In this document: one piece after another, positions 42,686 to 48,312 of the stretch | Numbering within the stretch: position 1 is the first letter of the stretch | Layout of the letters: each line of letters opens with the position of its first letter | From: an uncultured Alistipes sp. | GTDB lineage: Bacteria; Bacteroidota; Bacteroidia; Bacteroidales; Rikenellaceae | Reading direction: 5' to 3' | Assembly: GCA_949288735.1 (NCBI GenBank) | Contig: CASELE010000007.1 | Span: forward strand, 1,737-65,736 | DNA length: 64,000 bases | Position numbers and translations under genes: made by a program | The notes under the pieces: model-generated | What the model was told of the DNA's origin: nothing | Seen by the model: the letters and a program-made list of their open reading frames with translations, nothing else | Databases searched by the model: none

Positions 42686-44734
42686 TCATTTTCCCGTCAG
42701 CTTCCCGTTCGGCAGAAGCGAAATTTCGTCCGAGGCGAGCAGTGACTCCACTGCTTCGGCCACGGCGTCGGGTTCCGCGGCGAAGTGCCGGGCCAGCTCT
42801 TCGGGCCGCATCGGTTCGCCGGCAAGCAGTTGCACGATCGAACGCCGGTCGACGACCGGCGCGCCGTTCCGCTTCCGTCGGGCGATGCAGCGGTCGCAGA
42901 TGCCGCACGGTACGGGGCGCTCCTCGCCGAAGTAGCGCTCGAGCAGGACGCTGCGGCACTCCGTCCCCGTGTCGTCGGCGTAGGAGAGCATCCGGTCGAA
43001 CCGTTCGCGCATCAGCTCCTCTCTCCGGCGGTAGGTCTCGGGGGCGATGTATAGATCCCTCTCCGGAAGACGCTCCTCGTCGAGATGGATCAGCGGCGAA
43101 CGGTCGGCGGGTATGTAGCGGATCAGCCGCTGCTGCCAGAGGAGCTTCAGCAGTTCGCGGACCCGGTCTTCGGTGTAGCCGCTCCAGAGCGCGAGCACGC
43201 CCGTGTCGATGGGGCGGAAGTCGGTGAAGATACCGTCGTAGAGCCGCAGCAGCGTGCGGATGATGTGATCGAGATCGTTGCGCCGTACGCGGATGCGGTA
43301 GAGATCGTCGCGGCTGACGCAGAACATCACGCGGGCCGGGCGCTCCTGCTCGTCGATGAGGGTGAGATACCCGTTCTGCTGGAGCAGCTTCAGGGCGTTG
43401 CGTACGGTACCGGCGTAGAGATGTTCGCGGGCGCAGAAGTCGTGGAGATCGAAGCGGTAGGAGGTGTCGGCCCCTTCGCCTATTCCCACCTCCAGACGGG
43501 AGCAGATGCGCCCGTAGATGGAGCGCACCTGTTCCAGGGGCGGGAATTCGGCCTCGAAACGGCGGACGATGCGTGCCTCGTCGTCGGGGGCGACCAGCAG
43601 TACGGCATAGCTGCGGCGGCCGTCGCGTCCGGCGCGTCCGGCCTCCTGGTAGTAGCTTTCGAGCGAGTCGCAGAGCGTGTAATGGATGACGAACCGGACG
43701 TCTGGCTTGTCGATACCCATACCGAAGGCATTGGTGGCGACCATGATGCGCAGGCGGCCTGCGAGCCATCCCTCCTGCCGTTCCGACCGTTCGGCGTGCG
43801 TCAGGCCGCCGTGGTAGGACGCGGCGGTCTCGCCCTCGCGGCGCAGCAGTTCGGTCACCTGTTCGGCCCCTTCGCGCGTGCGGACGTAGACGATGCCCGG
43901 GCCCTCCACGTGGCGCACGATGTGGAGCAGCTGCCCCTCCTTGTCTTCCGTGCGGCGGACGCTGTACGACAGGTTGGGCCGTGCGAAACTGCTGCGCAGC
44001 ATGCGGGGCTCGGCGAAACGGAGCTGCCGCATGATGTCTTCGGCCACGGCCGGCGTGGCCGAGGCGGTGAGCGCCAGCACGGGCGTTCCGGCAGGCAGCA
44101 GATCGCGCAGTTCGGCGATACGCAGGTACGAAGGCCGGAAGTCGTATCCCCACTGGGAGATGCAGTGGGCCTCGTCCACGGCCAGCAGCCGCACGCGCAT
44201 GCGGCGCAGCCGTATGCGGAAGGTCTCGGAGGCGAGCCGTTCGGGGGCGACGTAGAGAAACTTCACGTCGCCGTAGACGCAGTTGTCGAGGGCGATGTCG
44301 ATCTGACGGGGCTGAAGTCCCGAATGGATGGCCACGGCCGGAATCCGGGAGGCGCGCAGTCGGTCGGTCTGGTCCTTCATCAGGGCGATCAGCGGCGTGA
44401 CGACGATGCAGAGCCCCGGACCGGCAAGTGCGGGCAGCTGGTAGGTGAGCGACTTGCCGCCGCCCGTGGGCATCAGCGCCAGCGTGTCGTGCCCGTCGAG
44501 CACCGAGCGAATGATGCGCTCCTGCATGGGACGGAACGAGTCGTAGCCCCAGTAGCGTTTCAACAGGGCGAGGAGCTCTTCGTGCGTCGGTGCGCCCGTC
44601 TGCCGGGGTCCGGTCCCGGCCGGCGCCGCCGCCTCTCCGCCGGCCTCCCGTGCCGTCGTGGCGGCCGGGGAGGCGGGAAGCCTCTCCTTTCCGTCGCTTC
44701 GGGATTCCCTCTCTTCCGTTTTGCCGCTTTCCAT
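42686..44734 (-). CDS. RecQ-family ATP-dependent DNA helicase (second paralogue)
   Basis: TGGGKS, DEAHCISQWGYDFR, QEAGRAGRDG, Cys cluster CR..CGICDRC; start placed at ATG 44734. Confidence 0.93.
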   Translation of the reverse strand: MESGKTEERESRSDGKERLPASPAATTAREAGGEAAAPAGTGPRQTGAPTHEELLALLKRYWGYDSFRPMQERIIRSVLDGHDTLALMPTGGGKSLTYQLPALAGPGLCIVVTPLIALMKDQTDRLRASRIPAVAIHSGLQPRQIDIALDNCVYGDVKFLYVAPERLASETFRIRLRRMRVRLLAVDEAHCISQWGYDFRPSYLRIAELRDLLPAGTPVLALTASATPAVAEDIMRQLRFAEPRMLRSSFARPNLSYSVRRTEDKEGQLLHIVRHVEGPGIVYVRTREGAEQVTELLRREGETAASYHGGLTHAERSERQEGWLAGRLRIMVATNAFGMGIDKPDVRFVIHYTLCDSLESYYQEAGRAGRDGRRSYAVLLVAPDDEARIVRRFEAEFPPLEQVRSIYGRICSRLEVGIGEGADTSYRFDLHDFCAREHLYAGTVRNALKLLQQNGYLTLIDEQERPARVMFCVSRDDLYRIRVRRNDLDHIIRTLLRLYDGIFTDFRPIDTGVLALWSGYTEDRVRELLKLLWQQRLIRYIPADRSPLIHLDEERLPERDLYIAPETYRRREELMRERFDRMLSYADDTGTECRSVLLERYFGEERPVPCGICDRCIARRKRNGAPVVDRRSIVQLLAGEPMRPEELARHFAAEPDAVAEAVESLLASDEISLLPNGKLTGK

Positions 44735-44847
44735 CCGCACAAAGGTACGTATTCCGTCCGAAACGGACAAGGTCGGAAGGGAAGAGGGTCCGAATTTGCG
44801 GATTTCGGAAAAATGGCTATTTTTGCACGGAACAATCCTTTCAGACA

Positions 44848-45114
44848 ATGAAGATACGCGACGAATACAAGGTACGGGAGATAGCGGGCGAACACGTGGT
44901 CATCATGCAGGGCCGTTACGGTGCCGACATGACGAAGGTCATATCGCTCAACGAATCCTCGCTCTATCTGTGGAACGAGCTGCATGGCCGTGATTTCGAA
45001 GCGGCCGATGCGGCCCGCCTGCTGACCGACCGTTACGGCATCGACGAGGCGACGGCACTGCACGACGCCGAAGCCTGGGTCGTCAGGCTCGGCGAGTGCG
45101 GACTGCTCGTCTGA
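44848..45114 (+). CDS. PqqD-family / RRE-like small protein
   Basis: REIAGEHVV..VISLNESSLYLW..L..RYGID...D..AW...L...GLL pattern; TATTTTTG box 44818-44825. Confidence 0.85.
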   Translation: MKIRDEYKVREIAGEHVVIMQGRYGADMTKVISLNESSLYLWNELHGRDFEAADAARLLTDRYGIDEATALHDAEAWVVRLGECGLLV

Positions 45115-45140: not shown

Positions 45141-45530
45141 ATGGGGAAGGGGAGATTTCATAAGGTATGGCTGACCTCGACGCTCTGCTGCCTGCTGCTG
45201 GCGGCCGGAGCGTTGCTTCCGTCATGCCTGTGTCCTCCGTCCGACAGTACTGCGGGATGCTGTGCCCGCGCAGAGCGTGCGGCGGTCCGTCCGGAGTGCT
45301 GCTACGATCTCCCGGCCGGGCAGTTTCTCTGCGCTTCGGTGCCTCTCCCCGAACGTGTGGGCTCCTCTGACGGCTGCTCCGGCGCGGCGCTTCATTCCGC
45401 CGGCCCGGTATGCGCGGAGCCGCTCCGCGGCATGTGGTCCGAGCTCCTTCTGCAGCGCCGCACGCCTCTCTCTTCGAGTGCCGCGCACCCGCCGCATGCC
45501 TTGCGCGCCCCTCCGGTGACTGGCCGATAA
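45141..45530 (+). CDS. Cys-rich upstream ORF with C-terminal RAPP arrest-like motif (DUF2946/CruR-like)
   Basis: 129 aa, hydrophobic N-terminus, 11 Cys (CC, CxC, CC, CC), ends LRAPPVTGR; RAPP codons 45504-45515. Confidence 0.75.
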   Translation: MGKGRFHKVWLTSTLCCLLLAAGALLPSCLCPPSDSTAGCCARAERAAVRPECCYDLPAGQFLCASVPLPERVGSSDGCSGAALHSAGPVCAEPLRGMWSELLLQRRTPLSSSAAHPPHALRAPPVTGR

Positions 45531-45594
45531 CCCGCTACGGGCAGCGTCGTGCGCGACGTTGCCGCAACGAGTTTTCACCAGTCATACGGATATC

Positions 45595-47934
45595 ATGAAC
45601 AAAGACAAGGCAAAGATACTGTTATCCATACCGATGCTTGTGCTTCTGTGCGGCACCGTACGTGCGCAGGAGGTGCGAGGCATCGTTCGCGGAACCGACG
45701 GCAAACCGCTGATCGGGGCCTCGGTCCATTGGGCCGGTACAACGGTCGGTACGGGTACCGACGCCTCCGGAGCCTATGCCCTGCACCGGCTGCAGGGTTA
45801 CGATCGTCTCGTGGCGTCGTACCTGGGCTGCAGGAGCGACACGCTCCGCATCGCCGAAGGTGCCGCCCCGGCCGATTTCATGCTCCAACCCGACGGACTC
45901 GCTCTGGAGAGCGTCGTCGTCGAAGCGGCGCAGAGCGGAAATTACATCCGCCGCGACGGCATCGCAAAGAACGAGACCATCTCCTTCGCGGGACTCTGCA
46001 AGATGGCCTGCTGCAACCTTGCGGAGAGTTTCGAGAACTCCGCCTCGGTGACGGTAGGCTACAGCGACGCCATCTCGGGTGCGCGACAGATCAAGATGCT
46101 CGGCCTGGCGGGTACCTACACCCAGATTCTCGACGAGAACCGGCCGGTCATGCGGGGCTTGAGCGCCCCGTACGGGCTGAGCTATACGCCCGGCATGTGG
46201 CTCAATTCGATACAGGTGTCGAAGGGTATCTCCTCGGTTACGGCCGGCCACGAGGCCGTGACGGGACAGATCAACCTCGAACACCGCAAACCGACCGACG
46301 AGGAGCGGCTCTTCGTCAATCTCTACCTCGACGACGAACTGCGTCCCGAGGCCAACATCTCGACCGCGCTGCCCGTCTCACGCGACGGGCGCCTCTCGAC
46401 CGTGGTGCTGCTCCACGGTTCGATGGATACGCACGTGCGCGAACCGGACCATAACGGCGACGGGTTCCTCGACATGCCGAAGAGCGACCAGATCAACGTG
46501 GCGAACCGCTGGCTGTGGAGCGCTCCCGGCGGCGTGCAGCTCCGCTGGGGTTGGAAGTACGTGCGCGAAAACCGTTTGGGCGGCATGACGGAGTACCGTC
46601 GTTCGCTCTACGGACAGATGATCGAACGGCTCTTTACCGACAATCCTCTCTACGGTTCGGAGATACGCAACCGCGGGGCCAATGCCTATCTGAAACTCGG
46701 CGTACCTTTCGGTCCCGCGCTCTACGACGGAGAGAAGCAGAGCGAGCTGCGTTCGAACCTCGCCCTCGTGGTCGACTACGACCGTTTCGACGAAGAGTCC
46801 TATTTCGGGCTGAACGATTACGACGGGGTCGAAAACACCCTTTCGGCCGACCTCATGTACAATCTCTACCTCACGCTGCGTTCGTCGTTCATTGCGGGTG
46901 TGCGGGCGCGCCTTCAGCGCTTCGACGAGACGCTGCTCCACCGTGTGCCCGATTTCGGGTCGCGGAGCATCGTCGGGAAGCGGATGACGATGGATCGCAG
47001 CGAAGACGAGTTCGGCGCCTATGCCGAGTATACCTATACGCTCGGCGACCGTCTTTCGGTCGTGGCGGGTGTGCGGGGCGACTACAGCACCTTCTACCGA
47101 TGCGGCTACTTCACGCCCCGTGGGCAGGTGAAGTGGAACGTCACACCTACCACGACGCTCCGTGCCTCGGCCGGGATGGGCTATCGGTCGACCAATGTCG
47201 TTACGGACCATATCGGCATCCTGGCTACGGGACGCCGTATCGTGATGCCGGCCGATTTCGGCGCGTTCGACCGCATGGAGCGGGCCGTCACGGCGGGCGG
47301 CAGCCTGACGCAGACCTTCGACCTGATACGTTCGGAGGCGGCGACGCTCAGCTTCGACTACTTCCGCACGCAGTTCTTCAATTCGGTGGTCGCCGACCAG
47401 GAACGCGATGCGGAGCATATCTATATCTACGCCACACACGGCCGTTCCCGGACGGACAGCTACCAGCTCGACTTCACGTGGACACCCGTCGATCGGCTCG
47501 ACCTCTTCGCCACGTTCCGCTATACCGATTCGAAGATGACCCTCGAACGTGCCGACGGGTCGCGTGCCCGTGTCGAACGGCCGCTGGTAAGCCGTTACAA
47601 AACGCTTGTCAACATACAGTATGCCACGAAGTTCCGCCGTTGGGTCTTCGATGTGACGGCGCAGCTCAACGGTCCGGCCCGTATCCCGACCCAGACGGGC
47701 GATCTGGCCGATTCGTACCATTCGCCGGCCTACCCGGTCCTCTTCGCGCAGGTGTCGCGCAAGGTGGGGAAATTCGACCTCTATCTGGGATGCGAGAATA
47801 TTGCGGACTACCGGCAGCACCGGCCGATTCTTGCGGCCGACGCCCCCTTTTCGACGGCCTTCAACTCCTCTCTGGTATGGGGCCCGCTCATGGGTCGCAA
47901 GCTCTATGCGGGGATGCGCTTCAATCTCTATTGA
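45595..47934 (+). CDS. TonB-dependent receptor, probably metal-related
   Basis: Signal peptide, carboxypeptidase-like N-domain, plug KMACCNLAESFEN, C-terminal GMRFNLY. Confidence 0.92.
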   Translation: MNKDKAKILLSIPMLVLLCGTVRAQEVRGIVRGTDGKPLIGASVHWAGTTVGTGTDASGAYALHRLQGYDRLVASYLGCRSDTLRIAEGAAPADFMLQPDGLALESVVVEAAQSGNYIRRDGIAKNETISFAGLCKMACCNLAESFENSASVTVGYSDAISGARQIKMLGLAGTYTQILDENRPVMRGLSAPYGLSYTPGMWLNSIQVSKGISSVTAGHEAVTGQINLEHRKPTDEERLFVNLYLDDELRPEANISTALPVSRDGRLSTVVLLHGSMDTHVREPDHNGDGFLDMPKSDQINVANRWLWSAPGGVQLRWGWKYVRENRLGGMTEYRRSLYGQMIERLFTDNPLYGSEIRNRGANAYLKLGVPFGPALYDGEKQSELRSNLALVVDYDRFDEESYFGLNDYDGVENTLSADLMYNLYLTLRSSFIAGVRARLQRFDETLLHRVPDFGSRSIVGKRMTMDRSEDEFGAYAEYTYTLGDRLSVVAGVRGDYSTFYRCGYFTPRGQVKWNVTPTTTLRASAGMGYRSTNVVTDHIGILATGRRIVMPADFGAFDRMERAVTAGGSLTQTFDLIRSEAATLSFDYFRTQFFNSVVADQERDAEHIYIYATHGRSRTDSYQLDFTWTPVDRLDLFATFRYTDSKMTLERADGSRARVERPLVSRYKTLVNIQYATKFRRWVFDVTAQLNGPARIPTQTGDLADSYHSPAYPVLFAQVSRKVGKFDLYLGCENIADYRQHRPILAADAPFSTAFNSSLVWGPLMGRKLYAGMRFNLY

Positions 47935-47955
47935 CAAACCGAAACAAGTGATGAT

Positions 47956-48312
47956 ATGAAACGAATGACAATGGCGGCGCTCATGCTCCTGCTCGTGGCG
48001 GGAGGTACGACCGTGCTCCGGGCCCGGCAGCCTGAGCGAAAGAAGACAGTGACCGTGGTTTTCGATGCGGACGTTACGTGCGAGAACTGCGTGCGCAAGA
48101 TCATGAACAACGTTCCGTCGCTAGGCCGAGGCATCCGCGACGTGCGGGCCGATGTCGGGAAGGGCGAGGTGACGGTACTCTTCGATCCTGCGAAAAACAG
48201 CGTGGAACGCATCGCCCGAGGGCTTGCCTCGCTCCGTGTGGAGGCCGAGCCGAAGAGCCTCGACGGACGACCTCTTTCCGACGGGGCGCAGCATCCGACG
48301 GAACGCGAGTAG
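47956..48312 (+). CDS. Exported heavy-metal-associated (HMA) domain protein
   Basis: Signal peptide; DVTCENC (CxxC) in HMA context; VTVLFDP. Confidence 0.88.
   Translation: MKRMTMAALMLLLVAGGTTVLRARQPERKKTVTVVFDADVTCENCVRKIMNNVPSLGRGIRDVRADVGKGEVTVLFDPAKNSVERIARGLASLRVEAEPKSLDGRPLSDGAQHPTERE

Follow-up and report, generated by a model that had tools for sequence, protein, structure and literature searches.

A RAPP-ended, cysteine-rich leader peptide and a covarying hairpin upstream of a TonB-dependent receptor gene of Alistipes: a candidate ribosome-arrest switch

What does a short, cysteine-rich open reading frame (ORF) ending in Arg-Ala-Pro-Pro (RAPP) do directly upstream of a TonB-dependent receptor gene? 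The ORF in question lies in a 64,000-nucleotide (nt) stretch of DNA, here called the window, from an uncultured Alistipes sp. of the family Rikenellaceae (GenBank assembly GCA_949288735.1, contig CASELE010000007.1, positions 1,737 to 65,736 of the forward strand), within a segment (45141-48312) that also carries the receptor gene and a gene for a secreted HMA-domain protein. An earlier note on this DNA had described an ORF of 129 amino acids (aa) with 11 Cys and an LRAPPVTGR* tail, 64 nt before the receptor, all of which is seen in the sequence: in the raw sequence and the ORF list it has an ATG start, the N-terminus MGKGRFHKVWLTSTLCCLLLAAGALL and the C-terminus LRAPPVTGR*, the peptide reads MGKGRFHKVWLTSTLCCLLLAAGALLPSCLC...HALRAPPVTGR*, and the stop codon is a TAA at 45528-45530. 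The same note took the ORF for a RAPP arrest leader, analogous to CruR of Bordetella, that serves a metal-uptake operon, and this idea is supported on comparative grounds by the conservation of RAPP, Cys residues and position. From comparison of sequences we propose, at a probability of about 0.68, that the ORF encodes a cis-acting regulatory peptide whose arrest at RAPP unmasks the start of the receptor gene by opening a hairpin. The leader would thus control translation of the receptor, and probably of the HMA gene that follows it too. The two features at the centre of the proposal are:

45141 to 45530, + strand: leader ORF, 129 aa, with a signal or anchor helix, a Cys-rich unstructured middle, RAPP, four codons and the stop.
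45504 to 45515, + strand: the RAPP codons, CGC GCC CCT CCG.

The window DNA is 62.5% GC and long spurious ORFs are numerous in it, and the GC contents at the three codon positions of the leader (0.68/0.65/0.74) give it an unconvincing gene-like character, so composition proves nothing here. No Pfam or NCBIfam match was obtained for the leader ORF, and a search with the single sequence returned no homologue. In every same-genus locus that could be read on the correct strand, an ORF of the same architecture (approximately 135-165 aa) is found directly upstream of the orthologous receptor, at a distance of 43-141 nt, mostly 50-76 nt. The shared plan consists of a basic N-terminus, a hydrophobic helix, a first Cys within L-T-C-x-C, a Cys/His-rich stretch with CC and C(x)C..HxH-S-x-EI-x-LY, some 55 variable residues, and the ending (G/S)(L/M/F)RAPP(V/A)(L/I/V)(A/V)*. 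Counted back from RAPP, the last Cys/His motif ends at 62-65 residues in most members and at 68 in the window. When 17 leaders were aligned, the invariant columns were M1, two Cys, and the R, A and first P of the motif (the second P is present in 16/17). Mean column identity among these leaders is 30%, compared with 55-71% identity for the adjoining receptor; an expectation set down earlier, that RAPP, Cys and position should be conserved while the rest diverges, was thus borne out.

A family profile built from the 17 leader orthologues finds one copy in 270/301 genomes of the genus, including 111/122 of the high-quality ones, and has matches in 8 of the 31 genera of Rikenellaceae. In a collection of 5.8 billion proteins it matched 339, most of them nameless and the few named ones called "hypothetical protein [Alistipes sp.]"; no Pfam domain was found on the best 120 of the 339. 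Among 1.84 billion representatives, the family amounts to 263 clusters at 50% identity. Since about 90% of the genomes of the genus have an ORF of this architecture, the leader ORF is real on this comparative evidence. A model made by AlphaFold2 for the orthologue P0001 (57-sequence alignment) is confident only at residues 2-28, i.e., the N-terminal helix, and the predicted local distance difference test (pLDDT) score of the remainder is about 50-60, as expected for a regulatory peptide or for a fold that depends on metal.

The motif itself is nearly invariant. The best 120 of the 339 matches comprise 118 with RAPP, one with RGPP and one with RAPS, and exactly three residues follow the motif in 119/119 of the R[AG]PP members among them. 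Non-conservation of RAPP in orthologues had been named as grounds for abandoning the arrest idea; in 147 representatives that are mutually no more than 50% identical, 130 end with R[AG]PP, exactly three further residues are present in 126 of these 130, and most of the 17 exceptions resemble frameshifted or truncated gene calls. In 42 distinct loci, the Arg is encoded by CGC, CGT, CGA, CGG, AGA or AGG and the Ala by all four GCN codons (Gly takes its place in two); use of six synonymous Arg codons and four Ala codons argues for selection on the peptide. RAPP is under-represented in the coding-like ORFs of the window's genome (4 observed, 11.2 expected), as it is in Bacteroidota, where the observed/expected ratio is 0.137 (PMC12992588, source data for Fig. 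3B), and no credible ORF of the window's genome other than the leader carries RAPP at its C-terminus.

How could an arrest at RAPP be passed on to the receptor gene? Folding of the region 45480-45640, or of RAPP to the receptor ATG, yields one long hairpin (-40.9 kcal/mol, z = -3.06) made up of the following parts:

45512 to 45523, + strand: 5' arm of the lower stem, UCCGGUGACUGG, within the predicted footprint of a ribosome stalled at RAPP.
45540 to 45563, + strand: inner GC-rich hairpin, GCAGCGUCGU-GCGC-GACGUUGC, the top of the structure, with compensatory changes in 10/10 inner-helix pairs.
45578 to 45590, + strand: 3' arm of the lower stem, CCAGUCAU-ACGG, which stops 5 nt short of the receptor ATG.

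The 5' arm starts at the last base of the codon for Pro124, includes the codons of Pro125, Val and Thr, and reaches into the Gly codon, most of which it covers; its partner is 45578-45590. A long hairpin of this kind is common to 16/16 orthologues folded (z -1.7 to -6.3), and the architecture is also found in the minimum free energy folds of nearly all distinct loci among those listed, the 5' arm starting at about the second Pro codon and spanning the stop, and the 3' arm ending 5-10 nt before the ATG. The arms vary between species and match within each: CCCGUAUUGGUUUAA is found with UUAACCAAUAACGG, GUUAUUGCAUAAAC with GUUUAUGU..AAUAAC, and, in the window, CCGGUGACUGG with CCAGUCAUACGG. Cognate arm duplexes have an average energy of -14.6 kcal/mol, compared with -10.1 for non-cognate and -8.4 for shuffled ones, and the window's cognate duplex (-23.1 kcal/mol) ranks 1 of 42. 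The deviant VTGR tail of the window leader is matched by changes in the 3' arm.

Covariation was scored on a MAFFT alignment, which was not fitted to the structure, with the structure written by hand: 76.7% of cells are paired, a share that drops to 31-46% once the partner is slid out of register, and the covariation score was reached by 0/500 shuffles. In an alignment of 32 sequences by covariance model, a procedure biased towards the structure, 82.3% pair and compensatory double changes are seen in 25/29 pairs. RNAalifold recovered zero structure, or only 6 pairs, from the MAFFT alignments because the variable loop misaligns the arms. The residues after RAPP are outside the nascent chain at the time of the stall, and conservation of the V-L/I-A tail is therefore best explained by RNA pairing. 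When the footprint of the stalled ribosome was made single-stranded in silico, the unpaired probability of positions -20 to +10 rose from 0.41 to 0.55, while a control footprint placed 30 nt upstream gave 0.42; such opening, modest but consistent, was seen in 31/37 loci. The hairpin region has no match in Rfam. An intrinsic terminator was ruled out at this place, the terminator scan being negative and no consistent U-tract being present 3' of the hairpin in orthologues. The computed pairing and covariation suggest that the 3' arm masks the initiation region of the receptor gene.

We therefore favour a working of the SecM or CutF type, in which initiation is unmasked, over the Rho route of CruR, because the hairpin pairs the post-RAPP codons with the receptor start. 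Transcription would begin at a promoter upstream of a PqqD-like gene that precedes the leader. The N-terminal helix would bring the nascent chain to the membrane and leave the Cys-rich segment (Cys/His-rich in relatives) exposed during translation. The ribosome would then stall at Arg-Ala-Pro-Pro, the P site being occupied by Pro124 (45510-45512) and the A site by Pro125 (45513-45515); the stall is suggested by analogy with ApdA, ApdP and CruR, and its register is that of the CruR toeprint. A ribosome so placed should cover about 15 nt downstream, i.e., the 5' arm 45512-45523, and by melting it would open the receptor initiation region and turn receptor synthesis ON. Upon release of the stall, the last four codons would be read, termination would follow, the hairpin would re-form and initiation would fall. 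The signal for release is most likely the binding of metal to, or the metal-dependent folding of, the exported Cys/His segment, which at 62-68 residues before RAPP should lie outside both the ribosome tunnel and the translocon. Plentiful metal would then mean release and OFF, as in CruR, and OFF under these conditions is to be expected since the target is an uptake receptor. Initiation in Bacteroidia needs an unstructured A-rich region and not Shine-Dalgarno pairing (see also PMC9976891), which makes masking of positions -5 to -25 a plausible block.

The leader is part of a larger unit, whose other features are:

44818 to 44825, + strand: Bacteroidetes-type -7 promoter box, TATTTTTG, 23 nt before the ATG of the PqqD-like gene.
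44848 to 45114, + strand: PqqD-family small protein of 88 aa (PF05402, 2.5e-12), first gene of the unit.
45595 to 47934, + strand: TonB-dependent receptor of 779 aa (Pfam TonB_dep_Rec_b-barrel, CarbopepD_reg_2, Plug).
47956 to 48312, + strand: secreted HMA-domain protein of 118 aa (PF00403, 3e-07), with an N-terminal signal-like segment and C42-E-N-C45.

The promoter consensus TAnnTTTG has 25 matches in the window, where 6.2 are expected. It is found 12-51 nt upstream of the PqqD-like gene in 26/26 loci in which that gene was recognised, and between the leader start and the receptor ATG in only 4/42 loci. The box at 44818-44825 is thus the probable promoter of the whole unit; from this placement, the PqqD-like gene, leader, receptor and HMA gene would share a single transcript, and the unit probably starts outside 45141-48312, given the PqqD-like gene and the box upstream. 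Two minus-strand TAnnTTTG boxes were also seen, one at 45611-45618, antisense within the first receptor codons, and one at 44740-44747, placed for a divergent recQ-like gene (42686-44848, minus strand).

Between the PqqD-like gene and the leader there are 26 nt. The PqqD-like gene is the leader's direct upstream neighbour in same-genus loci (gaps -1 to 140 nt), and by a crude motif scan it is missing from the RAPP loci of sister genera and from the loci of HYC_CC_PP genes (described below). Its product, a peptide-binding protein resembling the recognition element (RRE) of ribosomally synthesized and post-translationally modified peptide (RiPP) pathways, might bind the leader peptide. That the leader is a RiPP precursor handled by the PqqD-like protein is disfavoured by the lack of an adjacent maturase gene and the absence of PqqD from sister-genus loci.

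The credible start of the receptor is the ATG at 45595 (MNKDKAKILLSIPMLVLLCGTVRAQ) and not the TTG at 45559 given in the mechanical ORF list; leader and receptor are therefore 64 nt apart. Orthologues with 55-71% identity are present in 23/24 sampled genomes of the genus; the PDB holds no close relative of the receptor. A CC pair in the plug (KMACCNL), to which the earlier note had drawn attention, is part of a three-Cys motif, LCKMACCNLAESF (C135, C139, C140; receptor residues 135-140, encoded at 45997-46014), present as LCKMACCNL. In the form LCKMACC(N/S)LAESF the motif is invariant, apart from the N/S change, in all same-genus receptors checked, and CKMACC is also found in sister-genus receptors. 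The HMA gene, announced as a secreted CxxC protein, has the PF00403 match, the signal-like segment and the C42-x-x-C45 pair of such a protein, and it follows the receptor in nearly all orthologous loci checked.

Which signal would such a leader sense? A Fur-family gene is inserted between leader and receptor in one same-genus genome (L008:951-1373, G004); its NCBIfam matches, to Zur, Fur and PerR, are all weak, with little difference between them. In sister genera, RAPP-ended Cys/His leaders are found before the same type of receptor (loci L081-L084), and RAPP-ended Cys/His-rich leaders with HHHH after the helix are found before a His-rich RND efflux adaptor (loci L086-L089; TIGR01730, 2.4e-35; best specialised match CzcB/NccB). 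The hairpins of L086-L089 are laid out differently, being local to the stop codon. In addition, genes of the family HYC_CC_PP (NCBIfam NF047658), present in 61/151 genomes of the order Bacteroidales, precede either RND-pump-like ORFs or the orthologous receptor (loci L061-L080, L026/L028), the RND-pump-like ORFs being read as CzcA/CusA-type from their N-termini only. The CxxC of the HMA protein, the plug Cys, the Fur insertion, the sister leaders and the HYC_CC_PP context together support a metal role of the unit. Judging by the Cys pairs, the HMA protein with its CxxC and the Cys-rich plug, the likeliest candidates are thiophilic metals (Cu, Zn, Co, Ni or Cd). Our confidence in the identity of the metal, and in the sign of the control, is low.

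Among known systems, the closest gene context is that of CruR (Bp2923 of Bordetella pertussis), the prototype of Pfam family DUF2946 (PF11162) (PMC9426467). Both are RAPP leaders situated directly before a TonB-dependent transporter in one operon, and both have an export signal and a C-terminal RAPP, with three residues after RAPP in CruR and in most members of the Alistipes family and four in the window. In CruR, RAPP is needed for downstream gene expression (PMC9426467), arrest has been shown in vitro, and toeprinting puts the third RAPP codon in the P site and the fourth in the A site (PMC12992588). The Alistipes leaders share with DUF2946 the N-terminal export-type helix and the position at the head of a metal-related operon with receptor and HMA genes downstream, yet the DUF2946 hidden Markov model had no match at E <= 1 to the window ORF, three genus orthologues or 57 aligned members. 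The paired-CC Cys layout had earlier been said to be unlike the CruR CxxC, and so it is: CruR has one CxxC about 45 residues before RAPP, whereas the conserved Cys of the Alistipes family form CxC, CC and C(x)C..HxH (CxC, CC, CC(..HxH)), the last of these motifs ending 62-68 residues before RAPP. CruR further differs in its 162-nt intergenic region with a Rho site (here approximately 65 nt and structured) and in its partner gene, PepSY_TM (here HMA and PqqD-like genes), and Alistipes belongs to a phylum without Shine-Dalgarno pairing.

As regards the proposed working, CutF of Rhodobacter capsulatus (CutF-like/DUF2946; PMC9973294) comes nearest. It is a co-translationally exported Cys sensor with a C-terminal Pro-rich stalling-like motif, and translation of CutF opens a stem-loop by which the next gene's initiation region is shielded. 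CutF has no sequence similarity to the Alistipes leaders, its stalling motif is weaker and not a strict RAPP followed by three residues, and it controls a detoxifying multicopper oxidase for which copper prolongs the stall (ON), while for the uptake receptor here the opposite sign is expected. SecM, MifM, VemP, ApdA and ApdP also have an arrest peptide near the C-terminus (RAGP/RAPP) and a stalled ribosome that melts an initiation-masking structure, the stall being released by force on the exported nascent chain. What these peptides monitor is the secretion machinery, and the genes under their control are sec or yidC genes, whereas the Alistipes leader has metal-ligand residues and belongs to a metal-linked receptor operon.

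HYC_CC_PP proteins resemble the leaders in the N-terminal helix, the first Cys, the CC and a C-proximal PP, and in L026 and L028 they occupy the same position upstream of the orthologous receptor. They differ in ending with xSPP and a conserved tail of about 15 residues (..LQTYLI) instead of RAPP and three residues, and in lying mostly before RND-pump-like ORFs. The HYC_CC_PP model has no match to the window ORF, to the genus orthologues or anywhere in the window's genome, and the distant positional orthologues score 25.4 (L028) and 19.1 (L026) bits against a cut-off of 28 bits. Alignment of the leader family with HYC_CC_PP by hhalign gave 78% probability and an E-value of 1.7e-05 over only 27 columns (the N-terminal helix and first Cys); from these sequence resemblances common descent is possible.

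Could the same leader act in a different way? A control of transcription like that of CruR, in which the RAPP-stalled ribosome shields the transcript from Rho and release leads to termination before the receptor, has in our estimate a small chance that deserves to be taken seriously. The hairpin would then be incidental, or a pause or stability element. Bacteroidota possess Rho, and Rho termination and hairpin unmasking could operate together. The Rho route is also the sole experimentally established mechanism for a RAPP leader before a TonB-dependent transporter (PMC9426467). Against it stands the short intergenic region (64 nt in the window and 43-76 nt in most loci, compared with 162 nt in Bordetella), which is almost wholly base-paired and so leaves little unstructured RNA for Rho loading; besides, covariation ties the post-RAPP codons to the stretch beside the receptor ATG, for which a Rho model has no need. 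Alternatively, the product may itself be functional, as a metal-binding protein that is exported or anchored in the membrane and serves, for instance, as a chaperone or a receptor partner. RAPP would then be conserved for its part in structure or interaction and would cause no regulatory stalling, and the hairpin would be an ordinary intercistronic stabiliser. Cys/His-rich HYC_CC_PP proteins at the same position have no RAPP and are conserved beside metal transporters all the same, so the product of the leader ORF may act in trans, and a leader role and a role of the product are compatible; we rate this explanation as improbable, given the pLDDT of about 50-60 beyond the N-terminal helix, the fast divergence of sequence, a proteome-avoided motif fixed three residues from the stop in more than 95% of intact members, and post-RAPP residues apparently constrained by RNA pairing and not by the protein.

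It is very unlikely that the leader is a monitoring substrate for Sec or YidC of the SecM, ApdA and ApdP kind, which would sense export capacity and stand before the receptor by chance. An N-terminal export signal together with a C-terminal RAPP is typical of such substrates (PMC12992588), but the downstream genes encode a TonB receptor and an HMA protein and not secretion machinery, and metals are indicated by the conserved Cys/His motifs as well as by related leaders that precede metal-efflux genes. A spurious ORF in GC-rich DNA, as the atypical codon-position GC, the lack of a family match and the lack of a single-sequence homologue might suggest, has next to no likelihood in view of the profile match (2.5e-17) and an architecture conserved in about 90% of the genomes of the genus.

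Some points weigh against the arrest-and-unmasking proposal. CruR, the sole tested receptor-linked RAPP leader, works via Rho (PMC9426467) and, according to its authors, acts independently of its signal peptide; RAPP arrest is not known from Bacteroidota ribosomes. The covariance-model part of the covariation evidence carries the bias mentioned above, and in the model the initiation region opens only modestly (0.41 to 0.55), with 6/37 loci showing no opening. The window leader is also an outlier in its family: it has only 4 His, being without most His and without HHS-x-EI-x-LY, and four residues follow RAPP in place of three; it could be partly degenerate. The family profile recognises it at 2.5e-17 and 63.8 bits (typical members 85-150), its identity to the other sequences of the 17-sequence alignment is only 14-26%, and no close relative was found in the sampled genomes. 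The genome itself is small (1.66 Mb, 99.6% complete). The helix, CxC, two CC pairs, RAPP and the strongest cognate arm pairing (-23.1 kcal/mol) are retained, so the window leader looks functional, and it has possibly been retuned to Cys-only ligands.

What is new in this locus, and what may it mean? A 2025 proteome survey reported RAPP/RGPP upstream ORFs before TonB-dependent receptors "universally" in Gram-negatives, nearly all with signal sequences (PMC12992588). The earlier note's remark that no Bacteroidota example had been characterised stands to the extent that no paper describing or testing a Bacteroidota RAPP leader, or a leader family of Alistipes, was found in the literature; it has to be softened in view of the class reported by the survey. 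The general class, a RAPP upstream ORF before a TonB receptor, was thus already known, and the conserved hairpin that covaries with the receptor start is new here. Only two systems of metal-responsive ribosome arrest have been tested, CruR and CutF, both from proteobacteria, and the survey, which suggested that RAPP leaders before TonB receptors are widespread, tested none beyond CruR.

Conceivable, though unlikely, is a wider picture in which Rikenellaceae, and perhaps Bacteroidales at large, would have a metal-sensing arrest family of their own, unrelated to DUF2946, with a RAPP stall that unmasks Shine-Dalgarno-independent initiation, a design reused with opposite logic for uptake (TonB receptor and HMA protein) and for efflux (CzcB-like RND), and a co-transcribed PqqD-like, peptide-binding protein of the cytoplasm that binds the nascent leader. 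If the arrest proposal is true, a sequence-unrelated arrest family would exist in a different phylum, once in about 90% of the sampled genomes of a common gut genus. As Bacteroidota do without Shine-Dalgarno pairing, activation of a downstream gene by a stalled ribosome becomes a directly testable question, for which the covarying hairpin pinpoints precise mutations. The leader element would also single out the receptor and the HMA protein as a probable metal-uptake system of Alistipes, a genus in which the acquisition of metals has received little study.

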